The position numbers were made by a program, and so were the translations under genes. A stretch of DNA of 39,646 bases. Source: a virus (lineage: Duplodnaviria; Heunggongvirae; Uroviricota; Caudoviricetes). Under the pieces are notes generated by a model that saw only the letters and a list, made by a program, of their open reading frames with translations, did not search any database and had not been told where the DNA came from. Shown here one piece after another: positions 1 to 11,745 of the stretch. The DNA is taken from IMG/VR virus record IMGVR_UViG_3300011827_000030, positions 1 to 39,646 of that record. One strand, given 5' to 3'. Within the stretch, counting starts at the first letter, position 1; each line of letters opens with the position of its first letter.

Positions 1-1053
1 TTACGGGGTAATGCCAACCGCTGCCGCCACTTTGTCGCCACTTGGCAGCGTTGCCAGAGGATTGAAACGGAGCGCCGTTTCCAGATGATCCGGTGCCAGA
101 TGTGCGTAACGCATAGTCATTTTTATATCGTGGTGTCCGAGAATTTTTTGTAAGGCCAGAATGTTTCCACCCGACATCATGAAGTGCGCCGCAAACGTAT
201 GGCGCAGAACGTGTGTGAGTTGACCGCGAGGGAGCACGATAGACGTTTTTTCCATCACTGATAAAAATTGAAAATAGCAGTCTGTGAAGAAATTGAACCC
301 ATCAAGCGCCATGATCTCTTCGTAAAGCTCTTTACTGATAGGGATGCTTCTGTTTTTCTTCCCCTTCGTTCTGACAAAGGTAATTCGGTATTTGGTCACC
401 TGTGAGCGAGTAAGATTTACGGCTTCACGCCAGCGTGCGCCTGTGCTTAAGCATATCTTAACTACCAGTGCCAGAATTGGGTCCTGACGTTTGCAATCAG
501 CCAGCAATTCAACAATCTGCTCATGGGTAAGCCATGCCATCTCTTTTTCTGCGATGGTGAATTTTCGCATGTTCTCCAGTGGGTTCGGATACGACCATTC
601 GCCCAGACGGGATAGTTCGCTAAAAACACTACTTAGATAGCTTTGCTCCAGGTTAATGGTGACCGGGCTTGCTCCTTTCTTCCATTTCTCGCTGAAGTAG
701 ATCTCGCCTGTCAGGCGTTTATCTCGATAGTGGGCAAACATTTTAGAGGTGAGATCGGTTGCAAGAGGATTGCCCAGAGCGTCAACCATCAACAGCAATT
801 TGTCATAGACATGCTGCCCAGCTGTCAGAGATTTACCATGTAGTTTGAACCATAGTTCAACCACGTCTTTCAGTGTTCGACGATCCACTGATTCACCCAG
901 CCAGGGCTTTGCTTCGGTTTCTTCCATCGTGTGACGCTCAAAAGCCAGAGCTTCGCCTTTGGTGGCGAATTGTTTACGCACACGACGTCCACTACGTCCG
1001 GCGGGGTAACATTCGCAAAGCCATTTTCCTGTGGTGAGTTTTCGTACTGCCAT
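1..1053 (-). CDS. int: Tyrosine-type site-specific integrase (P2/186 Int-like)
   Basis: 350-aa ORF; the C-terminal region (HVLRHTFAAHFMMSGGNILALQKILGHHDIKMTMRYAHL) shows the R..HxxR..Y catalytic signature of tyrosine recombinases; sits at the prophage end next to the att repeat. Confidence 0.9.
   Translation of the reverse strand: MAVRKLTTGKWLCECYPAGRSGRRVRKQFATKGEALAFERHTMEETEAKPWLGESVDRRTLKDVVELWFKLHGKSLTAGQHVYDKLLLMVDALGNPLATDLTSKMFAHYRDKRLTGEIYFSEKWKKGASPVTINLEQSYLSSVFSELSRLGEWSYPNPLENMRKFTIAEKEMAWLTHEQIVELLADCKRQDPILALVVKICLSTGARWREAVNLTRSQVTKYRITFVRTKGKKNRSIPISKELYEEIMALDGFNFFTDCYFQFLSVMEKTSIVLPRGQLTHVLRHTFAAHFMMSGGNILALQKILGHHDIKMTMRYAHLAPDHLETALRFNPLATLPSGDKVAAAVGITP
19..41. other. 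attL: Putative attL core (left copy of direct repeat CGCTGCCGCCA-Y-TTTGTCGCCA), lying inside the 3' end of int
   Basis: Sequence cgctgccgccactttgtcgccac at 19-41 recurs with one internal mismatch at 36821-36843, immediately after the ogr stop. Confidence 0.6.
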
Positions 1054-1078
1054 AAAAAAGCCCTCATATCAGAGGGCT
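1054..1078 (-). terminator. Hairpin GCCCTC-atatca-GAGGGC followed, on the minus strand, by a U6 tract; the 3' arm GAGGG also looks like the int ribosome-binding site
   Basis: Plus strand 1054-1078 aaaaaagccctcatatcagagggc; the minus-strand transcript reads GCCCUCUGAUAUGAGGGCUUUUUUAUG, ending at the int start codon (1053). Confidence 0.5.
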
Positions 1079-1136
1079 AAATTTAACTGTATATACAACC
1101 AGTAATCAATGTGTGATTACTATGAAACATACATTG

Positions 1137-2813
1137 CTAAGCAACATGCAGTTCATCGTTGGCGGAAGTTGCTGCTTTGCGCTCTTGCTCAATCGCCAGT
1201 GACTCTCTATATTCTTTCGCTTCCGCAAACATTGTCCATTGTGCGTTGATGTTCATATCTTCAATAACAGACTTAATTTCTTTAATATTTACGTTGAAAA
1301 ACTCTTTTCGTGAGTTAATTTTATTGACCTGTTTTTCGTTGAAGACTTTATGCAGATGATTTTCTAATGATGGTGCATCATCACTATAAATCATCGCATG
1401 AACATCGAACGAAAAAGGAACACTAGCATCACCGAGTTCACGAACACGATCAAGTGGTTCAAGGCGGCGTGTCATTCCAATTTTATATACATCTTCGCCA
1501 AATGAGCCAATATTACTAATTATATAAACGTGGCCTGATCTAGTTTGTTGAGCCATAGAAATAGCTCGTTGGTTTTTAGCTTCAGCTTCTTCATATTTTA
1601 ACTGTAGTTCAGCTATTTTTTGCTCTAAAGCTAAGCGTTGTTCTTCATTTGCAAGCATAAGCTCTTTTGTTGCTTTATTTATAGCTTGCTGAATAGCTTT
1701 CTCTTCTTTTTCAGCTTCTTTTATCGCTTTTTCATACTCCCTACGAGCTCTTTCCTCTTCACGAAGTTGTTCTTTAATCCTTCTTTGCTCTTCTTTTTCT
1801 TCGAGCATAATTTCATTAACTGCAACTCCCCATTTTAGCTCGTTGAGTCGAGCTTGAAGATAGATGTCACTTATTTTTGCGGACCTAAAGGCAGAACCAT
1901 TGTAATTTACAAGTTGAAACGCATCTTTTATCTCTTGGGAAAGTTTTCCAAAATTGTTGTGTTTGACTTTTGATAAAATACTGTCAACTCTTCCATTGAA
2001 GGCATCTAAAACAAAGTTGATAGCAGTATTACGCCTGTTTTGTTCAACATAATCACACGAAGCAGCTTTATTAGTTTTTATTAATAATTTTGTTAACTCC
2101 CTGGCTTTTTGTAATTCCTTACCTGCATCTGTAAACTCATAATTTTCTGCCAATTCATCGAGAACGCTACGGTTAGGGATGATCCATTCATCACCATAAC
2201 CTTCAATTTTATTTTTCATTGATTTGGCAACTGCTTCATATTTTTCTGCAAACTCTTTAGCTTCATATGCTGAACCAGCAATCTCTTTTGCTCTTTCTTC
2301 TGCATCGGAAATAATTTTCACTGCATTGTCATTAGCATTTGAGATCAGCTCATTTGCTTTACTATTGGCATTATCAAGACGTTCTTTAGCTTTCAGGCGT
2401 GCATCGCGAGCGTCTTTAGTAATTGCTATAGCTTCGCTATTAGCGTTGCTTATTTTTATCTGAGCTTGATAATTTGCTTCGTTTACTGTCTTAGCAGCCT
2501 TTATTTGGGCTTCTTCTATTTTTTGCCTGGCTATTGAGTCTGCATTTTTTATCTTATTCTCTGCTTCCATCACTGCGCTGTGCAATTCTACGTATTGCCA
2601 TAATGGCGCAGCTCGTCCTTCAAGCTCTGATAGATCTCGTACAGTCTGTGCTAATTCTTCTTGATTTTCTTTCAGTTGGTTGGAAAGGGCTATGTTGTTA
2701 GCTGTCAAGGTATTTATAGCCGCTTTATGTTTTTTGCTTTGCTTAAATAATATTACAGCTAGAATGGGGGCGAGAAATGCTAATAAGAATATAACGATGG
2801 AAAATGAATTCAT
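1137..2813 (-). CDS. Cargo protein: N-terminal transmembrane helix, long coiled coil, C-terminal T5orf172 (GIY-YIG-like) domain; candidate defence or lysogenic-conversion gene
   Basis: 558 aa; hydrophobic N-terminus SFSIVIFLLAFLAPILAVILF; K/E/A/Q-rich heptad-like stretches; C-terminal GHVYIISNIGSFGEDVYKIGMTRRLEPLDRVRELGDASVPFSFDVHAMIYSDDAPSLENHLHKVF...EFFNV matches the recalled T5orf172/DUF4041 pattern; gene is AT-rich relative to the phage backbone; RBS AAGGA precedes the ATG. Confidence 0.75.
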   Translation of the reverse strand: MNSFSIVIFLLAFLAPILAVILFKQSKKHKAAINTLTANNIALSNQLKENQEELAQTVRDLSELEGRAAPLWQYVELHSAVMEAENKIKNADSIARQKIEEAQIKAAKTVNEANYQAQIKISNANSEAIAITKDARDARLKAKERLDNANSKANELISNANDNAVKIISDAEERAKEIAGSAYEAKEFAEKYEAVAKSMKNKIEGYGDEWIIPNRSVLDELAENYEFTDAGKELQKARELTKLLIKTNKAASCDYVEQNRRNTAINFVLDAFNGRVDSILSKVKHNNFGKLSQEIKDAFQLVNYNGSAFRSAKISDIYLQARLNELKWGVAVNEIMLEEKEEQRRIKEQLREEERARREYEKAIKEAEKEEKAIQQAINKATKELMLANEEQRLALEQKIAELQLKYEEAEAKNQRAISMAQQTRSGHVYIISNIGSFGEDVYKIGMTRRLEPLDRVRELGDASVPFSFDVHAMIYSDDAPSLENHLHKVFNEKQVNKINSRKEFFNVNIKEIKSVIEDMNINAQWTMFAEAKEYRESLAIEQERKAATSANDELHVA

Positions 2814-2833
2814 TTTTAAATCCTTTTACTATA

Positions 2834-3430
2834 TTAATTTGAAACTATTGTACTTCTTATACAAGCAACTACTTCAATATCAGAAAATGCACATTCAAAG
2901 CTATTCTCTGTACTTGTAATTTTAATCATACCTTTTGGAAGCTTTGTGATTTTTCGAATGGAATAGGTTCCGTCGATGTTGATTAACCAGTGCCCATCAA
3001 GTACTTCAGAAAATTTTTGATCACAAATGTATGTGACGAGCCCATCCTGAATAACAATTGGTGATGAAAGATTTGCAGGAAGAAATGATGAATCGAAGAC
3101 ATATGAACCATCTTCAATCATTTTGCCTGCGGTAAGGCGAAACTTGGCAAGCTCTTCTGTAGCTGCTGTCAGCGAGCTTTGCTTAAGGCCTTGCCCGGTG
3201 GTTAACCATTTCAGTGAGGTTCCTGTTTCAAGAGCACATTGGATTATCCAGTCTGCAGGAAACGTATCCCGCAAATACCTGTTCGCCAGAGTGCTTTTTG
3301 ATACTTCCAAGTGATCAGCTAAAGCCTGTCGTGTCGTAAAGCCATAAGCTTCGACTAATCGCTCAATCGCAGCCTTACCACCTTTATTGGGATTTATTTT
3401 GATCTCATTTGGGTACTTTGATGTTGACAT
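2834..3430 (-). CDS. cI: 186-type CI immunity repressor (CI-like HTH N-terminal domain)
   Basis: 198 aa; N-terminal ...STLANRYLRDTFPADWIIQCALETGTSLKWLTTGQG resembles the phage CI repressor HTH family; divergent from apl/cII across a promoter region. Confidence 0.8.
   Translation of the reverse strand: MSTSKYPNEIKINPNKGGKAAIERLVEAYGFTTRQALADHLEVSKSTLANRYLRDTFPADWIIQCALETGTSLKWLTTGQGLKQSSLTAATEELAKFRLTAGKMIEDGSYVFDSSFLPANLSSPIVIQDGLVTYICDQKFSEVLDGHWLINIDGTYSIRKITKLPKGMIKITSTENSFECAFSDIEVVACIRSTIVSN
3406..3418. repeat. Direct repeat CATTTGGGTACTT, copy 1 (candidate operator / Apl or CI binding site)
   Basis: Exact 13-mer repeated at 3465-3477 in the cI/apl switch region. Confidence 0.5.
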
Positions 3431-3452
3431 ATCTCTTTTGCGATCCTAGTAT
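3424..3452 (+). promoter_or_regulatory. Candidate early rightward promoter (pR-like): -35 TTGACA, 17-nt spacer, -10 TAGTAT
   Basis: TTGACA at 3424-3429 and TAGTAT at 3447-3452 with a 17-nt spacer, about 75 nt upstream of apl; overlaps the cI start codon. Confidence 0.55.
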
Positions 3453-3464
3453 CAATTTTGTCCC

Positions 3465-3477
3465 CATTTGGGTACTT
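3465..3477. repeat. Direct repeat CATTTGGGTACTT, copy 2
   Basis: Identical to 3406-3418. Confidence 0.5.
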
Positions 3478-3525
3478 GTCACGATTACTACAGGCTCACC
3501 ACAAGCCAATAGGAGATGTTGCATC

Positions 3526-3747
3526 ATGACCCCTAACATTTCAATAACTCTGAATACGCCACATGTCACAATTGAGCGTTATAGCGAACTTACTGGTCTT
3601 TCTATCGACACCATCAACGATATGCTGGCTGATGGTCGCATCCCTCGCCATCGCCTTCGGAAAGACAAGAAAAGAGAAAAGGTAATGATCAACCTTGCTG
3701 CTCTTACCGTTGATGCACTTACTGATTGCAATGTTGTATTCAACTAG
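3526..3747 (+). CDS. apl: Apl/Cox-type excisionase and transcriptional regulator
   Basis: 73-aa product [10 protein letters not shown]...; RBS AGGAGA at 3511-3516; first gene of the rightward early operon, divergent from cI as in phage 186. Confidence 0.7.
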
Positions 3748-3779
3748 TTCCATTTTGGGATACATCAGGGGTGTCGACT

Positions 3780-4289
3780 ATGTTTGATTACCAAGTTTCC
3801 AAACATCCACATTTTGACGAAGCCTGTCGTGCATTCGCACTGCGCCACAACCTGGTGCAACTGGCAGAACGTGCAGGCATGAATGTACAGATTCTGCGGA
3901 ACAAGCTGAACCCAGCTCAACCTCATTTATTAACCGCACCAGAAATCTGGTTGCTTACCGATCTGACTGAAGATTCAACGCTGGTAGATGGCTTTCTGGC
4001 ACAGATTCACTGCCTGCCATGTGTACCGATTAATGAGGTGGCAAAAGAGAAACTGCCGCATTATGTCATGAGTGCAACCGCAGAGATCGGGCGTGTTGCT
4101 GCAGGTGCGGTATCCGGCGATGTAAAAACCAGTGCAGGTCGTCGTGATGCTATCAGCAGCATTAACTCTGTAACACGGCTGATGGCGCTGGCCGCTGTTT
4201 CATTGCAGGCCCGTTTACAGGCTAATCCTGCGATGGCGAGTGCAGTTGATACCGTTACTGGCCTCGGTGCTTCATTCGGTTTGCTGTGA
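3780..4289 (+). CDS. cII: CII-like lysogeny establishment regulator (186 CII-like)
   Basis: 169-aa product starting [24 protein letters not shown]..., close to my recollection of 186 CII (same length, similar N-terminus). Confidence 0.8.
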
Positions 4290-4296
4290 GGTGCTT

Positions 4297-4497
4297 ATGC
4301 TGACGAAAGAACCATCATTTGCATCGCTGCTGGTAAAACAAAGCCCGGCAATGCACTACGGTCACGGCTGGATCATGGGGGAGGATGGTAAACGCTGGCA
4401 TCCGTGCCGTTCACAGGATGAATTGCTGGCAGAACTATCTACGAAAAAACGGGGGAACAAATGGCTATTGAAGGCGCTGCGGCAACTGTTCCATTAA
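4297..4497 (+). CDS. Small early protein (position of 186 fil / P2 orf78); function unknown
   Basis: 66-aa ORF from ATG 4297 with RBS GAGGTG upstream; positional analogy only. Confidence 0.45.
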   Translation: MLTKEPSFASLLVKQSPAMHYGHGWIMGEDGKRWHPCRSQDELLAELSTKKRGNKWLLKALRQLFH

Positions 4498-4802
4498 GCC
4501 CCGGTGAACGCCTGAATGGACTTAATCACATTGCGGAGTTAAGGGCGAAAGTTTTTGGCCTGAATATTGAGTCAGAGCTTGAGCGGTTTATTAAAGATAT
4601 GCGTGATCCACGGGATATCAATAATGAACAAAATAAACGAGCACTGGCTGCCATATTCTTTATGGCAAAAATTCCAGCTGAACGTCATAGCATCAGCATT
4701 AATGAGCTGACCACTGACGAAAAGCGGGAGCTGATTAAAGCAATGAATCATTTTCGTGCAGTGGTGAGCTTATTTCCCAGACGGCTAACCATGCCGAATT
4801 AA
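4461..4802 (+). CDS. Hypothetical early-operon protein
   Basis: 113-aa ORF in the early operon; overlaps the previous ORF's stop; no recognised motif. Confidence 0.55.
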   Translation: MAIEGAAATVPLSPGERLNGLNHIAELRAKVFGLNIESELERFIKDMRDPRDINNEQNKRALAAIFFMAKIPAERHSISINELTTDEKRELIKAMNHFRAVVSLFPRRLTMPN

Positions 4803-5330: not shown

Positions 5331-6184
5331 GCACCATCTTGAAATGGGCGGGAAATAAAACCGCCGTAATGTCCGAACTGAAAAAACATCTTCCTGCTGG
5401 TCCGCGACTAGTTGAACCTTTCGCGGGTTCCTGTGCTGTGATGATGGAGACGGATTATCCCTGCTATCTGGTTGCGGATATTAATCCTGATTTAATCAAC
5501 CTCTATAAAAAGGTTGCCGCTGATTGTGAATCGTTTATATCTCGCGCCAAAGTTTTATTTGAGATCGCAAACAGGGAGGTGGCTTATTACAACATAAGGC
5601 AGGAGTTTAATTACTCAACTGAAATTACTGATTTCATGAAAGCGGTATATTTCCTGTATCTCAATCGTCACGGTTACCGTGGGTTATGTCGCTATAACAA
5701 GAGCGGGCATTTCAACATTCCCTACGGTAATTATAAAAATCCGTATTTCCCTGAAAAAGAAATTCGCGCTTTTGCAGAAAAAGCCCAGCGAGCAACGTTT
5801 ATCTGCGCCAGCTTTGATGAAACGCTGGCGATGTTGAAGGCGGGGGATGTGGTGTATTGCGATCCGCCTTATGACGGTACGTTTTCCGGCTATCACGCTG
5901 ACGGCTTTACTGAAGATGACCAGTATCACCTGGCATCCGTTCTTGAACATCGGTCATCAGAAGGACATCCGGTCATTGTTTCTAACAGTGACACATCCCT
6001 GATCCGTTCGCTGTATCGCAATTTTACTCACCACTATATCAAGGTAAAACGCAGCATCGGCGTAGCAGCTGGTGAGAGTAAATCAGCAACAGAAATCATT
6101 GCTGTTTCCGGGCCGCGCTGCTGGGTGGGATTTGATTATTCGCGTGGCGTGGATAGTTCTGCCGTGTACGGAGTACGTGCATGA
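5327..6184 (+). CDS. dam: DNA adenine methyltransferase (Dam-like, GATC-type N6-adenine methyltransferase)
   Basis: N-terminal LKWAGNK and PFAGS motifs plus DPPY catalytic motif ([14 protein letters not shown]); RBS GGAGG; ATGA overlap with the upstream gene. Confidence 0.85.
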
Positions 6185-8595
6185 GCCATGCCGATATGAG
6201 CAACTGCTGCGGCTTTAACGAGGCTGCCGCATCGTTCTCATGGAACAGCCCGAAAAAGGCCATTAACCCTTATCTGGACCCGGCGGAAGTTGCGCCGGTT
6301 TCTGCGCTTTCAAACCTGATCACTCTGTACGCTGCCGATAACGAGCAGGAACAACTGCGCCGCGAGGCACTGAGTGATCAGGTCTGGGAGCGTTATTTCT
6401 TTAATGAATCCCGTGATCCTGTCCAACGCGAAATAGAGCAGGATAAGCTCATTAGCCGGGCAAAGTTGGCGCATGAGCAGCAGCGTTTTAACCCGGACAT
6501 GGTCATTCTGGCAGACGTCAGCGCCCAGCCCTCCCATATCAGCAAGCCGCTGATGCAACGTATTGAATACTTCAGCAGCCTGGGCAGGCCAAAGGCTTAT
6601 TCCCGCTATTTACGTGAGACGATTAAGCCATGTCTGGAACGACTGGAGCATGTACGCGACAGCCAGCTATCTGCATCTTTTCGTTTTATGGCAAGCCATG
6701 TAGGGCTGGACGGCCTGCTGATTCTGCCTGAAATGAGTCAGGATCAGGTGAAACGCCTGTCTACCCTTGTCGCTGCGCATATGAGCATGTGCCTTGATGC
6801 AGCTTGTGGTGATTTGTATGCCACCGATGACGTTAAGCCAGAAGAAATCCGCAAGACATGGGAAAAGGTGGCAGCGGAAACCCTGCGTCTGGATGTCATC
6901 CCGCCTGCGTTTGAGCAACTCCGTCGGAAAAGAAACCGCCGTAAACCCGTGCCCTATGAACTCATTCCGGGTTCGCTGGCGCGTATGTTGTGCGCCGACT
7001 GGTGGTACCGGAAATTATGGAAAATGCGTTGCGAATGGCGGGAAGAGCAGTTGCGTGCTGTCTGCCTGGTCAGCAAAAAAGCATCTCCCTATGTCAGCTA
7101 TGAAGCCGTGATGCATAAACGTGAGCAGCGCCGCAAGTCACTGGAGTTTTTCCGTTCTCATGAACTGGTGAACGAAGAGGGCGACACGCTGGATATGGAA
7201 GACGTGGTAAACGCCAGCAGCAGCAACCCGGCGCACCGCCGCAATGAGATGATGGCCTGTGTTAAAGGTCTGGAGCTTATCGCGGAAATGCGCGGTGACT
7301 GCGCCGTTTTCTACACCATTACCTGTCCGTCACGTTTCCATTCCACGCTCAATAACGGCAGACCAAACCCAACCTGGACAAATGCGACGGTAAGACAAAG
7401 CAGCGATTATCTGGTCGGCATGTTTGCTGCATTTCGTAAGGCGATGCACAAAGCCGGGTTGCGCTGGTATGGCGTGCGGGTGGCTGAGCCGCATCATGAC
7501 GGTACAGTTCACTGGCACCTGTTGTGTTTCATGCGCAAAAAAGACCGCCGCGCCATTACTGCATTGTTGCGTAAGTTTGCCATCCGTGAAGACCGCGAGG
7601 AACTGGGTAATAACACTGGTCCACGCTTTAAATCTGAGCTGATAAACCCGCGCAAAGGAACGCCGACAAGCTACATCGCGAAATACATCAGTAAGAACAT
7701 TGACGGGCGTGGTCTGGCTGGCGAGATCAGCAAGGAAACGGGTAAATCCCTGCGTGATAACGCTGAATACGTTAATGCCTGGGCGTCTCTGCATCGTGTT
7801 CAGCAATTCCGCTTCTTTGGTATTCCGGGACGTCAGGCTTACCGTGAACTTCGCTTGCTGGCTGGTCAGGCGGCAAGGCAACAGAGTGACAAAAAAGCAG
7901 GTGCGCCGGTACTGGATAACCCGCGTCTTGATGCCATTCTGGCTGCTGCTGATGCTGGTTGTTTTGCCACCTACATCATGAAGCAGGGCGGCGTACTGGT
8001 TCCCCGCAAATATCACCTCATCAGAACCGCTTATGAAATCAACGAAGAGCCAACCGCCTATGGCGATCACGGTATTCGTATTTATGGCATCTGGTCACCC
8101 ATTGCAGAGGGCAAGATCTGCACTCATGCAGTGAAGTGGAAAATGGTTCGTAAGGCCGTTGACGTTCAGGAGGCGGCAGCCGACCAGGGCGCTTGCGCCC
8201 CTTGGACTCGTGGCAATAACTATCCCCTTGCTGAAAATTTGAACCAACAGGAGAAAGATAAATCAGCTGATGGGGACACCAGAACGGACATTACCCGCAT
8301 GGATGACAAGGAGTTGCACGATTACTTGCACAGTATGAGCAAAAAAGAGCGCCGGGAACTGGCTGCAAGGTTACGCCTGGTTAAACCGAAACGGCGTAAA
8401 GACTACAAACAGCGAATTACAGACCATCAGCGACTGCAGCTCGTCTATGAGCTGAAGTCCAGAGGATTTGATGGTAGCGAGAAAGAGGTCGATTTACTCC
8501 TTCGCGGCGGCAGTATTCCGTCAGGAGCAGGCCTGCGTATCTTCTATCGGAACCAGCGTTTGCAGGAAGATGATAAGTGGCGGAACCTGTATTAA
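6181..8595 (+). CDS. A: Replication initiation protein A (rolling-circle nicking endonuclease, P2 gpA-like)
   Basis: 804 aa; HUH-type motif (GTVHWHLL) and active-site tyrosine motif ([14 protein letters not shown]) typical of P2 A; conserved position after the early genes. Confidence 0.9.
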
Positions 8596-8664: not shown

Positions 8665-8693
8665 TTTACATCAGTAATATTATTATATACTGT
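8665..8693 (+). promoter_or_regulatory. Candidate sigma70 promoter whose -10 overlaps the LexA box
   Basis: TTTACA at 8665-8670 with TATACT/TACTGT about 15-17 nt downstream. Confidence 0.4.
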
Positions 8694-8707
8694 AAATATA
8701 AACAGTG
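8688..8707. promoter_or_regulatory. LexA (SOS) box taCTGTaaatataaACAGtg
   Basis: Perfect CTGT-N8-ACAG with an AT-rich centre, about 40 nt upstream of the small ORF and dinI-like gene. Confidence 0.7.
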
Positions 8708-8747
8708 GTTGTCTATACAGTATTGATTTGGTGTCATAGGAGGAAAG

Positions 8748-8936
8748 ATGCAGGACTATTTTTTGGAGTCTTTGAAGCTCCAGCGCATTGATTTTTTTCT
8801 TAAGCTTGTAGCGGCTAGTGAGTGTAGTGATGAAGAGAAGGGGCTGGCTCTGCAGTGGGTTTCTGAACTGACAGATGAACTCATGGCAAAAATCAGAACC
8901 CACGAATACAACCGCTCAATGGATGTCATCAGCTGA
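8748..8936 (+). CDS. Small SOS-box-associated protein (possibly Tum-like antirepressor; unverified)
   Basis: 62-aa ORF with RBS AGGAGG immediately upstream, directly downstream of the LexA box; functional call is by analogy to the 186 SOS-controlled antirepressor, not by recognised sequence. Confidence 0.45.
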   Translation: MQDYFLESLKLQRIDFFLKLVAASECSDEEKGLALQWVSELTDELMAKIRTHEYNRSMDVIS

Positions 8937-8946
8937 GGTGACTTTT

Positions 8947-9180
8947 ATGCGCATTGAAATAATGATCGATAAAGAGCAGAAGATTAGCCAGTCTACACTG
9001 GACGCCCTTGAATCCGAGCTTTACCGCAATCTGCGCCCCCTGTATCCCAAAACGGTAATCCGTATCCGTAAAGGTAGCTCTAACGGTGTGGAACTGACCG
9101 GACTGCAACCGGACGAAGAAAGAAAACAAGTGATGAAAATTATGCAGAAGGTGTGGGAAGACGACAGCTGGCTGCATTAA
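8947..9180 (+). CDS. dinI: DinI-family protein
   Basis: 77 aa, MRIEIMIDKEQKISQSTLDALESELYRNLRPLYPKTVIRIRKGSSNGVELTGL...VWEDDSWL aligns by eye with E. coli DinI. Confidence 0.85.
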   Translation: MRIEIMIDKEQKISQSTLDALESELYRNLRPLYPKTVIRIRKGSSNGVELTGLQPDEERKQVMKIMQKVWEDDSWLH

Positions 9181-9624
9181 GAAATGTTGCCCCCAGGAGG
9201 ATTCATTCTAATGGGGGCTAGTTTGGGCAACGAGTGAAACGAGGCGTAAGGTGGGTAATCATTTTGATAAGTGATCGCCCACTTTGTGCCAAAAGCGGAC
9301 ATCGCAGATATGACAATATGTTAGTCAACCGCGATTAGATCAGTCAGTTGGAGATGGGGGGAAGTTACAAAAACTTGTCGTCCGCCATCTCCGACTACGG
9401 GTATTCTTAACTGTACATGCTCTTTCAATCGATGATTTTTGAGTAAGTGACTAACCTATTGTTTTGATAGTAATTAAACGTATAAACGTGCGGAGTTAAT
9501 TTGAAAGTTATGTGTCTATGTTTGACAAGCAAAATTTTAAAGATTGGTTTTATCCACAGGTAATTTATGCTATTAATAGCCTCAAGCCCTGTAATTATTT
9601 TTATTTAAATGGATAAATTTGAAA

Positions 9625-11745
9625 ATGAGTACATATCATAATGATCAGCCAATACTAGGTGGTCAAAATGACCCCGATTTATTAAACAGGCTCGATTTTG
9701 CAAATCACTTGGCAAATATTCTACTATTAAATCACAATGATGATTGCCTTACTGTATCTATAGAGGCAGAGTGGGGATATGGTAAAACGTCAGTGATAAA
9801 TCTTATAAAAGGTGCTTTGAATGAAAAGGAGTTCTTACCAATAATAATAGAATATAATCCATGGCTGGCCGGTCAACCTGAATCCTTGATTCAGGATTTT
9901 TTATTACAGTTCTCTTCACAACTAAATATTAAAGACAATTCAAAAGCTGCTTTGGAAGCTTCAAAAGAATTAATTGCATACTCCAATCTCTTCAGTGTAG
10001 CAAAACTTATTCCAGGGACAGAACCTTGGGCATCTATCATAGAAAAAGTCCTCTCTAATTTTGGGAGTGCTACTAAAAAGATTGCTGAATTAAAAAAACT
10101 GGATCTTTTAGGTAGAAAAAAACAAGTAGAGAAGGCAATAAAAAAAATAAAAAATCCTATTGTGGTAATAATTGATGATTTTGATCGATTGACTCCTACA
10201 GAAACTTTTCAAGTTTTACGATTGGTTAAAGCAGTTGCAGATTTCTCAGGAACTTCTTTTTTACTTGCATTTGATCCTAATTATTTGATTTCTGTGCTTG
10301 ATAAAAATAATATCGTCAATTCTTCGGAGTATCTTAATAAAATTGTTCAACTTCGAGTCCCACTTCCTGTAATCTCAGAAAGGGGTATGAATGAACTTGC
10401 AAATGCAGAACTGGAAAAGATAGCTAATAAATCTTTAACTGACAGATTCGAAAGTGATCAAGAAAGACTAAGCTGGATTTATCATAATTATTTTAAAAAA
10501 CTAATTAAGAATCCGAGAGAGTTAAAAAGATTTTTTAACCATTTGAGATTCGTTTTAGAGCAAATTGAAGGGCAGGTATGTTTTTCTGATCTCTTTGCTT
10601 TATCTCTGGTTGCCACTAAATCGAGTTTGGTATACGAGCATATTAAAAGCACACCAGAGGCATATATAGGGAAGAGATTCACTAATGATGGCCTTTTGAT
10701 GGATAAACCTCAAGATATTGTGGATAGATTTAGTGATGAGCGAAATAAGAAACTGAGTAATTTTTCTGATCAAGAGCGTTCAGTGATGCAGGAACTCTTA
10801 GGAGATATTTTCCCACTTCTACAGTCAAGCGGGTATTCTCATTATGGGGTTTCTGATCCCGATACAGCAGGAAGGGTTTCTGCACCACAAAGGCTTCATA
10901 TTGCGTTTCATTATAAAACTCCAGCAGGGTATATTTCTGATCATGATATTATCAGTTTCATTAATGGAGATGTTAAAAGAAACGAATTTCTAAGAGATGT
11001 GCTCTCGCAAAATGCAGAAGAAAGATTTTTTGAAATGATGAATAATTATTCGAGTTATTGTAAGGATAATAGTTTTGAAATATTAACGTGTATTTATGAT
11101 ACTTTTCTGTTTTCTCAAGAATTGAAATCCTCATTGGAAAGAAACTATGGTTTTTTGACAAAAGATCTTTATAGAAGGATGAATTGGCTCACTAATAAGG
11201 TAATATCTGAAAGTGATGATAAATATGGGTTAATAAAGGGGGTTGTAGGTAGGCATGAGAATGCGCCACTTGGTGCAGACGTATTATGCCAAGCTCGTAA
11301 ACAGATTCAAAATGGATGGAATGACAAAATATGGGTTAGTATTGAAGAATTGGCTGAACTTGAAGGTATCTTTCAACAGGTGGCTATTAAAGTTTTAAGT
11401 GATAAAATATATTTTGATTATCATCTTGAATCTCATATATTTTTCGAATTAAAGAGAGTTTCATCTCAATTTACATCAGAGTTTATTGCTTCTGTATTAT
11501 CAAGTGATGGCCTGATTAGGATGTGTGAGATTATTGGTGAAACAGGTAGTGATTCAACAAATGGCCCTTTTTTTAAGTTTGATGAAATTTACTTCGGGGA
11601 AATACTTGATGTGAATGAACTTCGAAATAAAGCGAAAAATTTAGATTTTTCAATTTATCCCACACGCATTCAAGCTGTACTTAAGAGTATTCTGGATGGA
11701 CAAAAATATTATTTGAGAGATGCAACTGTTGGTGAAGATTGGTAA
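9625..11745 (+). CDS. KAP-family P-loop NTPase (cargo, candidate defence gene)
   Basis: 706 aa from ATG 9625; Walker A EAEWGYGKTS (9766-9792) and Walker B hhhhDDFDR (IVVIIDDFDRLTPTE) with a long helical C-terminal region, the KAP NTPase signature; gene is AT-rich; no obvious TM helices. Confidence 0.8.
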   Translation: MSTYHNDQPILGGQNDPDLLNRLDFANHLANILLLNHNDDCLTVSIEAEWGYGKTSVINLIKGALNEKEFLPIIIEYNPWLAGQPESLIQDFLLQFSSQLNIKDNSKAALEASKELIAYSNLFSVAKLIPGTEPWASIIEKVLSNFGSATKKIAELKKLDLLGRKKQVEKAIKKIKNPIVVIIDDFDRLTPTETFQVLRLVKAVADFSGTSFLLAFDPNYLISVLDKNNIVNSSEYLNKIVQLRVPLPVISERGMNELANAELEKIANKSLTDRFESDQERLSWIYHNYFKKLIKNPRELKRFFNHLRFVLEQIEGQVCFSDLFALSLVATKSSLVYEHIKSTPEAYIGKRFTNDGLLMDKPQDIVDRFSDERNKKLSNFSDQERSVMQELLGDIFPLLQSSGYSHYGVSDPDTAGRVSAPQRLHIAFHYKTPAGYISDHDIISFINGDVKRNEFLRDVLSQNAEERFFEMMNNYSSYCKDNSFEILTCIYDTFLFSQELKSSLERNYGFLTKDLYRRMNWLTNKVISESDDKYGLIKGVVGRHENAPLGADVLCQARKQIQNGWNDKIWVSIEELAELEGIFQQVAIKVLSDKIYFDYHLESHIFFELKRVSSQFTSEFIASVLSSDGLIRMCEIIGETGSDSTNGPFFKFDEIYFGEILDVNELRNKAKNLDFSIYPTRIQAVLKSILDGQKYYLRDATVGEDW

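Follow-up and report, generated by a model that had tools for sequence, protein, structure and literature searches.

A hairpin upstream of the integrase gene of a 186-like prophage as a probable insulator over the start site of a putative SOS-controlled int promoter

Introduction

According to the 186/P2 paradigm, the repressor transcript supplies integrase constitutively, and a directionality factor, Apl or Cox, is the sole control on excision. Fold-back inhibition and protection of the transposase gene have reportedly been described for the insertion sequences IS10, IS50 and IS200, and the promoters of integron integrase genes (intI) are said to be repressed by LexA. In phage 186 itself the cI stop codon overlaps the start of int, and int is without a promoter, LexA box or hairpin of its own. 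The CII protein of 186, which is unrelated to the CII protein of lambda (PMC7708051), binds an inverted repeat whose halves are separated by two helical turns and have their centres at -38 and -58 of the promoter pE (Hao et al., PMC6593788).

Here we examine a 39,646-nucleotide stretch of viral DNA (the window) in which int is separated from the genes upstream of it by a short spacer ending in a hairpin that contains the int Shine-Dalgarno (SD) sequence. From the sequence and from comparison with related loci, we propose that this hairpin is probably an insulator over the start site of an autonomous, SOS-controlled int promoter.

Results

The lysogeny module and the int spacer

The window is a 186-like (Peduoviridae) prophage, and its left end is a lysogeny module on the minus strand, as judged from the ORF list, Pfam and PADLOC (Table 1). 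The lysogenic operon runs from cI to a PD-Lambda-1 cargo gene, which starts 20 nt after the cI stop codon and is the final gene of the operon, and is followed by an 83-nt spacer and then by int. Int shares 56% identity with 186 Int and aligns with it co-linearly from residue 1 (N-terminus MAVRK, compared with MTVRK in 186), and we therefore take ATG1053 to be the true int start. CII of the window is 69% identical to 186 CII, and the site at the start of cII has a form identical to that of the annotated 186 CII site. A LexA box also lies upstream of a tum/DinI-like operon, with a DinI domain in the ORF at 8875..9180 (Pfam), and by its position this box is the equivalent of 186 p95, the LexA-controlled tum promoter.

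Table 1. Coordinates of genes and of observed and predicted sequence elements in the window
Feature	Position	Strand	Basis or detail
int, 350-aa tyrosine integrase	1..1053	-	ORF list; Pfam Int_N + Phage_integrase
int start and stop codons	ATG 1053..1051; stop codon, window bases 3..1	-	
U6 tract, terminator tail	1054..1059	-	sequence; right after the stem, abutting AUG
Hairpin AGCCCUC-UGAUAU-GAGGGCU	1059..1078	-	5' arm 1078..1072, loop 1071..1066, 3' arm 1065..1059
int Shine-Dalgarno sequence GAGGG	1061..1065	-	sequence; wholly within 3' arm, 7-8 nt upstream of AUG
Predicted transcription start C1074	1074	-	uncertainty about 2 nt; in hairpin 5' arm; 7th nt after -10; 38 nt from right half-site centre
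Predicted -10 hexamer TTAAAT	1081..1086	-	relatives TTAAAT, TAAAAT, AAAAAT
Putative LexA (SOS) box TACTGGTTGTATATACAGTT	1085..1104	.	CTG-N10-CAG; 16/20 consensus positions
Predicted -35 hexamer TTGATT	1104..1109	-	17 bp from -10; relatives TTGACC, TTGACA, TTTACA
186-CII-type inverted repeat	1109..1134	.	motif match; ATGTATG (1134..1128), 12 nt, CACACAT (1115..1109)
Cargo gene, PD-Lambda-1 anti-phage defence protein, 558 aa	1137..2813	-	PADLOC E = 1e-119; Pfam DUF4041 + T5orf172/MUG113
cI, 186-type CI repressor	2834..3430	-	Pfam Phage_CI_repr + Phage_CI_C; ORF list
cII, 186-type activator, 169 aa	3780..4289	+	Pfam Phage_CP76
pE-type CII site	3780..3806	.	ATGTTTG-N13-CAAACAT, at start of cII
Second putative LexA box TACTGTAAATATAAACAGTG	8688..8707	.	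17/20 consensus positions; upstream of tum/DinI-like operon

A hairpin over the int Shine-Dalgarno sequence

The preliminary description of this DNA placed a terminator hairpin with a 6-bp stem, a 6-nt loop and a U6 tract directly upstream of int. The loop and the U6 tract running up to the AUG are as described, but the stem comprises seven pairs (A1078-U1059, G1077-C1060, C1076-G1061, C1075-G1062, C1074-G1063, U1073-A1064 and C1072-G1065), five of which are GC. The observation that the only SD-like element of int is contained in the 3' arm stands, GAGGG being the sole purine-rich element 5' of the int ATG. RNAfold predicts the hairpin in its context, the region 1030-1140(-) folding with -31.4 kcal/mol and a z-score of -4.2 that is partly due to DNA palindromes (the LexA box and the CII-type repeat) and not to RNA structure. 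A folding energy calculation for the local hairpin, which had been put forward as a check on it, gives -13.3 kcal/mol with z = -4.0 against dinucleotide shuffles.

With its GC-rich stem, short loop and immediate 3' U-tract, the hairpin has the anatomy of an intrinsic (Rho-independent) terminator. Positions 1..4500 contain no other terminator-like site on the minus strand, and there is thus none other between the lysogenic promoter and int. A strict scan of both strands of the 39.6-kb window (perfect stem of at least 6 bp, at least four GC pairs, at least five T in the next six positions) returned this hairpin as one of two sites, with about 0.4 expected by chance. It lies 59 nt past the cargo stop codon, a position that fits the end of a transcription unit. 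The hairpin has the look of an intrinsic terminator for the cI-cargo operon, and the earlier proposal that it ends the cI-cargo transcript agrees with its canonical anatomy, with its rarity in the window and with its being the sole such site downstream.

Promoter-like elements in the spacer

A total of 77 loci encoding relatives of Int were fetched, one genome per species, and the 100 nt before each start codon were read; together with phage records and three separately fetched E. coli strains these made up the set from which loci were collected by requiring CTG-N10-CAG. Forty-four loci, with Int proteins 55-100% identical to that of the window, share a module of elements at fixed spacing, in the order CII-type inverted repeat, -35, LexA box in the 17-bp spacer, -10, hairpin and ATG. 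They are distributed through the Enterobacterales, in Escherichia, Klebsiella, Raoultella, Enterobacter, Citrobacter, Kluyvera, Serratia, Yersinia, Rahnella, Ewingella, Pantoea, Pectobacterium and Brenneria, among other genera.

The inverted repeat has the consensus ATGTWTG-N12/13-CAWACAT across the module loci, with at most one mismatch in each half-site in most of the 44 and a degenerate left half-site in a few. The half-sites are spaced by 19 bp in the window and 21 loci and by 20 bp in 21 loci, the latter being the spacing of 186 pE and of the pE of the window. Elsewhere in the window the repeat pattern is found once, at the pE-type site, which is where the 186 record annotates the pE CII binding site. 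From the 186 annotation and sequence we reproduced the pE half-sites at -38 and -58, and the int-proximal half-sites are centred near -57 and -38 relative to the predicted int start, the centre of the right half-site being at 1112. With the start where we predict it, the int promoter would have the geometry of pE, and CII would probably bind the int-proximal repeat. Comparing the pE half-sites of each phage with its int-proximal half-sites for covariation was uninformative, as the motif is near-identical in all loci.

As a LexA operator we considered a 20-bp palindrome of the type TACTGT(AT)4ACAGTA with CTG-N10-CAG, the form taken by TACTGGTTGTATATACAGTT. The 39.6-kb window has only two sites that match at 15 or more of the 20 positions, TACTGGTTGTATATACAGTT and the box of the tum-type promoter, and a match of at least 16/20 is expected by chance 0.045 times per window. 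CTG and CAG are present in 44 of 44 module loci, a set that was chosen by CTG-N10-CAG, and the flanking T, the ACAG and the AT-rich core are also kept, giving the pattern (T/C)ACTG(T/G)-AT-rich-ACAGT. CTG and CAG/ACAGT are the most conserved parts, and the AT-rich core between them varies, as expected for a LexA operator. With the hexamers as predicted, the box occupies the whole 17-bp spacer, taking in one base of the -35 (its first) and two of the -10, and LexA bound at 1085..1104 would shut out RNA polymerase.

The promoter scan left out the int promoter, because the hexamers of the window, at 8/12, fall below its cut-off; our argument for this promoter is drawn from conservation among related loci and from agreement with the geometry of pE. 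In loci with 5 nt instead of 6 between half-site and CTG, the promoter register moves as well, and the hexamers are TTGACA or TTTACA and TAAAAT or AAAAAT. A near-consensus -35 (TTGACC, TTGACA) is present in many relatives, which suggests that their int promoters, unlike pE, would have appreciable basal activity.

The predicted start lies within the hairpin

The -10 hexamer (1086..1081) ends 2 nt ahead of the stem, which begins at 1078, and the geometry of 186 pE would put the transcription start at about C1074. Across the module loci the ATG is 16-23 nt downstream of the predicted start, and the hairpin begins a few nt past the -10; in some types the predicted stem reaches back into the -10.

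The position of the start has a large effect on the computed availability of the SD sequence. In RNA that enters from upstream, 12-14 kcal/mol would be required to unpair the SD, in keeping with the earlier proposal that the stem occludes the int ribosome-binding site. The cost is 3.3 kcal/mol for RNA starting at 1074 and 2.1-2.6 kcal/mol for starts at 1073-1071, and a start at 1076 or 1075 leaves a residual stem of 4-5 bp at a cost of 8 or 6 kcal/mol. With a start in the 5' arm, the mRNA from this promoter would form neither the terminator nor the SD mask, and the complete hairpin would form only in RNA begun upstream of about 1077. If transcription began upstream of the stem, a complete terminator would stand 20 nt into the RNA, and a conserved promoter would be pointless in the Escherichia/Klebsiella clade; a promoter 27 nt from the ATG with a strong terminator in between is futile unless it starts inside the stem.

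An alternative is that the int promoter does start upstream of the stem, from a -10 at TACAGT (1091..1086) with a start at about 1079/1078, such that the hairpin stabilises the 5' end of the mRNA and throttles its translation. TACAGT is invariant and matches TATAAT at four of six positions, 5'-terminal hairpins are known as mRNA stabilisers, and tight limitation of integrase synthesis is common. We nonetheless consider such a start unlikely. The invariance of TACAGT is accounted for by its being half of the LexA box, the matching -35 would be ACACAT, which shares 0 positions with TTGACA, and the CII half-sites would be displaced to about -33 and -52 and so away from the pE positions. Moreover, in the Escherichia/Klebsiella clade, transcription from this start would meet an intact terminator after 20 nt and be aborted.

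The spacer stays with int when the cargo changes

In Klebsiella phage 4LV2017 an unrelated cargo of two ORFs (349 and 201 aa) is located between cI and int, and blastn similarity to the window starts right after the cargo stop codon and continues through the spacer into int. Since the similarity begins at the cargo stop in spite of the unrelated cargo, the spacer belongs to int. E. coli strains with unrelated cargo also retain the entire spacer, and the cargo between cI and int in this species is varied, including PD-Lambda-1/DUF4041, a SNIPE-associated protein, a 63-aa YdcA-like protein and a frameshifted ORF. As the 83 nt from cargo stop to int ATG remain with int when the cargo differs, they are not a 3' untranslated region of the cargo gene. 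The segment from -35 to ATG occurs in a prophage adjoining rcdA in 1096 of 5426 complete E. coli genomes (~20%), and the module in E. coli L73 and OW968288 is an identical one. Among the phage records inspected, those of the Klebsiella 4LV2017 group, KP12 and vB_EcoM-813R9 have the module, and those of 186, PSP3 and Yersinia phage vB_YenM_201.16 lack it; in these last three, int abuts the upstream gene and there is no hairpin.

These findings bear on the suggestion in the preliminary description that int is under attenuation or translational control within the cI-cargo transcript, which we do not favour, as the spacer reads as a promoter with its predicted start inside the 5' arm. Such an arrangement would leave int without a promoter of its own and dependent on the cI-cargo transcript, with the hairpin acting as both attenuator and translational operator and its read-through or melting being regulated. 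It would account for a hairpin and U6 tract between the operon and int with the SD in the stem, and int of 186 is itself expressed from the cI transcript, leftward transcription in 186 having been reported by an int-lacZ fusion (PMC7708051). We regard it as quite unlikely, however, for several reasons. The spacer is conserved as DNA motifs in promoter geometry, and the relatives that truly couple int to the upstream gene have no hairpin. There is no conserved antiterminator pairing or leader peptide, the minimum free energy fold offers no alternative pairing to the 5' arm, and matches to Rfam leader families reach about 19 bits (19.5) against thresholds of 41-55. A Trp/Phe-type attenuator or leader peptide was considered specifically and rejected, there being no conserved alternative helix or leader ORF.

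Predicted SD masking is conserved across clades

To compare hairpins among the module loci, each sequence was folded separately and set against dinucleotide shuffles, with 26 int loci lacking the module as a control; this was preferred to an alignment, which, for stems and loop lengths so divergent, would have had to be guided by the fold and so have been circular. Thirty-three of the 35 distinct module sequences fold into a hairpin between -10 and ATG, the exceptions without a real hairpin being loci L027 and L046. The module hairpins have a mean dG of -12.3 kcal/mol and a median z of -4.4, compared with a mean of -2.8 kcal/mol for the control loci. In all of the other 33 sequences the 3' arm reaches the SD region just 5' of the AUG. 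Their 5' arms extend to the 7th to 10th nt past the -10 and so span the predicted start.

The positions of the arms are conserved, and the sequences that form them are not. There are at least 10 unrelated stem sequences among the module loci, examples being AGCCCUC/GAGGGCU, GCUCUCC/GGAGGGC, CUCUCCUAA/UUAGGAGAG, ACCCCCUU/AAGGGGGU and ACAGUCCUC/GGGGGCUGU, together with CACAUUCUC/GAGAAUGUG in Rahnella and UCCUCCAUU/AAUGGAGGA in Ewingella. The U-tract is confined to hairpins of the Escherichia/Klebsiella/Enterobacter/Citrobacter type. In Pantoea, Mixta and Winslowiella there is instead a conventional terminator just upstream of the CII-type repeat, and a separate terminator upstream of the promoter was found at loci L032, L034, L039 and L046. 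Because other clades keep an SD-masking hairpin without any U-tract, termination is not its conserved property; SD masking appears to be the conserved function, with termination an add-on in the Escherichia/Klebsiella clade.

The same comparison weighs against the simpler idea that the hairpin is just the terminator of the lysogenic/cargo operon and that its overlap with the SD is incidental. Its canonical anatomy and its standing as the only terminator downstream of the cargo are as this idea would have them. But the hairpin travels with int across unrelated cargos, the clades lacking a U-tract still pair the SD-bearing 3' arm by means of wholly different sequences, and several of these clades have a separate terminator upstream of the promoter, all of which make an incidental overlap very unlikely.

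A small RNA encoded in the spacer and ending at the terminator, whether of RyhB type or from the 3' untranslated region of the operon, is highly improbable: a weak match to Rfam RyhB (RF00057) at 1052..1120(-), with 30 bits and E = 0.013 over 5 kb, and the resemblance of the hairpin, U-tail and preceding A/U-rich stretch to an Hfq-binding 3' module speak for it, but the aligned positions are the -35, LexA box and -10, which are conserved as DNA palindromes, and the hairpin sequence is not conserved between clades. The RyhB assignment itself was rejected, as 30 bits compares with a gathering threshold of 55 and many unrelated sRNA and leader models match the terminator weakly.

How an insulated int promoter would operate

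Returning to the hairpin as an insulator, we infer that the lysogenic operon ends at it, such that polymerase coming from pL or pE would terminate there. In any read-through RNA that escaped, the int SD would be locked in a stem of about -13 kcal/mol, and no Int would be made from the constitutive lysogenic transcript. Transcription of int would instead depend on its own sigma-70 promoter, which LexA would shut in a lysogen and SOS induction would open, and which CII would probably boost during the establishment of lysogeny, as CII does at lambda pI. In a transcript begun at about C1074, the SD would be free in a leader of about 21 nt, and the terminator could not form. The same 25 nt would thus block foreign transcripts and be invisible to that of int itself. 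Since the mRNA from its own promoter would start inside the 5' arm, the hairpin is best read as an insulator against read-through and not as a regulatory switch.

The placement of the two putative binding sites raises the issue of how Int is supplied for integration. When the cell is undamaged and newly infected, LexA occupying the promoter spacer should stand in the way of CII-dependent activation as well. Plausible explanations are that CII may out-compete LexA, that the operator, which reads CTGG in the window, is perhaps weak, or that residual read-through from the strong pE may contribute.

Discussion

It is possible, and we advance it tentatively, that a 186-like lineage, found in roughly a fifth of complete E. 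coli genomes, has detached int from the repressor operon and placed it under a CII-type site for establishment and a LexA operator for excision during SOS, with a single hairpin serving as a promoter-selective gate. In the P2/186 literature searched, neither a LexA- or CII-controlled int promoter nor a hairpin of this kind is described for P2/186-like phages, and the module promoter is apparently undescribed.

Were this arrangement to be correct, a very common group of enterobacterial prophages would time the synthesis of integrase itself through SOS and probably CII, and a widespread prophage gene would join the LexA regulon of Escherichia, Klebsiella, Enterobacter and other genera. The hotspot for defence genes between cI and int could be run from the lysogenic promoter without driving integrase. 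The hairpin would be a natural promoter-embedded terminator that passes the transcripts of one promoter and blocks those of another, a compact design for synthetic biology. The model also makes a testable prediction on the interplay of a 186-type CII and LexA at one promoter.

Several elements of this arrangement have counterparts in known systems. As at lambda int, there would be a dedicated CII-dependent promoter (pI in lambda), and transcripts from other promoters would be made non-productive by a hairpin that forms only in the longer RNA. The sib hairpin of lambda, however, is 3' of the gene and acts via RNase III decay, whereas the hairpin here is 5' of int and is proposed to act via termination and SD masking; lambda pI is also without a LexA operator, in contrast to the int promoter and its LexA box. 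Integron intI resembles what is predicted for the int of the window, as a tyrosine recombinase gene of a mobile element whose promoter is overlapped by a LexA box, coupling recombination to SOS. Integrons are nonetheless a different type of element, with neither a CII-type activator site nor a terminator and SD-masking hairpin over the start.

A close mechanistic parallel to the proposed role of the hairpin is in the insertion sequences, where the fold-back structures of IS10 and IS50, and the left-end terminator and stem-loop over the ribosome-binding site in IS200, shield the recombinase gene of a mobile element from outside transcription. There the ribosome-binding site pairs with sequence upstream of the gene's own transcription start, such that only the native transcript is translatable, and the same would hold at int if transcription starts where we predict it. 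Here the pairing of the SD and its conservation are computed, and the placement of the 5' arm upstream of or across the start depends on the predicted +1. The int arrangement differs from those of the insertion sequences in that terminator and mask are one hairpin, that the gene concerned encodes a phage tyrosine integrase and the transcript coming from outside belongs to the lysogenic operon of the phage itself, and that the native promoter carries LexA and CII-type sites.

With 186, the window shares homologous CI, CII and Int proteins. The int promoter has the half-site motif of 186 pE (ATGTTTG/CAAACAT type) at the same position relative to the -10, and a LexA box of the same type as that of p95. 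It differs from either 186 promoter in that both kinds of site are combined on one promoter, that of int, and in that the repeat has a spacing of 19 bp and not 20 bp in half of the loci. In our analysis, the arrangement is thus most readily seen as a new combination of known parts, those of 186 pE and p95, with a mechanism of the insertion sequence type and a logic like that of lambda pI and sib.

Hairpin and terminator variants among integrase relatives

In the type-B hairpins (loci L001, L004, L012 and L016, each encoding an Int relative), the A-run of the -10 element (TAAAAAT) pairs with the U-tract 3' of the stem, and the resulting 13-bp A-tract/hairpin/U-tract structure has a dG of -14 to -19 kcal/mol. 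It resembles a bidirectional terminator that overlaps the -10 element. In Pantoea, Winslowiella and Mixta (L032, L034, L039 and L046) a canonical terminator, for example GCCCGCTCAGCGGGCTTTTT, extends right up to the base at which the CII-type repeat begins, and in these clades termination and masking of the Shine-Dalgarno sequence are served by separate elements.

In the deposited record of Klebsiella phage 4LV2017 (L001) the integrase is annotated as starting at position 3653 of the locus. The conserved ATG lies 24 codons further upstream, and the promoter and hairpin module thus goes unseen in the 5' region as annotated. The same phage has a CI repressor of 313 aa with two CI-type HTH modules in tandem.

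Two weak Rfam matches were seen in the window. A RyhB match at 1052..1120 (-), scoring 30 bits against a gathering score of 55, was rejected and is accounted for by the terminator and the DNA palindromes of the promoter. A match to a CRISPR direct-repeat model at 3650..3693 (+) within the apl/cox-like region (22 bits against 39, E = 0.17) is most likely due to chance.

Cargo genes and the probably SOS-controlled operon

The cI-int junction, occupied here by an anti-phage defence gene, is a variable cargo site, where genes unrelated to it occur in other prophages of E. coli and Klebsiella that share this int module. The DinI-domain part and the ORF upstream of it are in different frames, so that Tum, compared with its 186 counterpart, appears to be split or frameshifted. 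The KAP-family NTPase downstream is possibly a further cargo for defence or exclusion, one that the SOS response would control.

Features of the window and of two loci encoding Int relatives
Feature	Source	Position	Strand	Remarks
PD-Lambda-1 defence gene (DUF4041 + T5orf172/MUG113)	window	1137..2813	-	between cI and int
Region with both LexA boxes	window	8675..8722		
Strong LexA box	window	8688..8707		5' of tum-like operon (+)
Weaker LexA box, 14/20	window	8703..8722		overlaps strong box; precedes tum-like operon
Tum-like ORFs	window	8748..9180	+	
Upstream ORF, 62 aa	window	8748..8936		
DinI-domain part	window	8875..9180	+	
KAP-family P-loop NTPase, 708 aa	window	9619..11745	+	downstream of tum-like operon, at 186 orf97 position
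int of 4LV2017	L001	3581..4633		conserved ATG at 3581
Hypothetical extra gene, 240 aa	L084 (E. coli AR_0019)	5603..6325		between int and host rcdA

With this placement the extra gene in E. coli AR_0019 separates int from the att site, a situation reminiscent of the minor int-att defence hotspot that has been reported in P2-like phages (PMC13586616).
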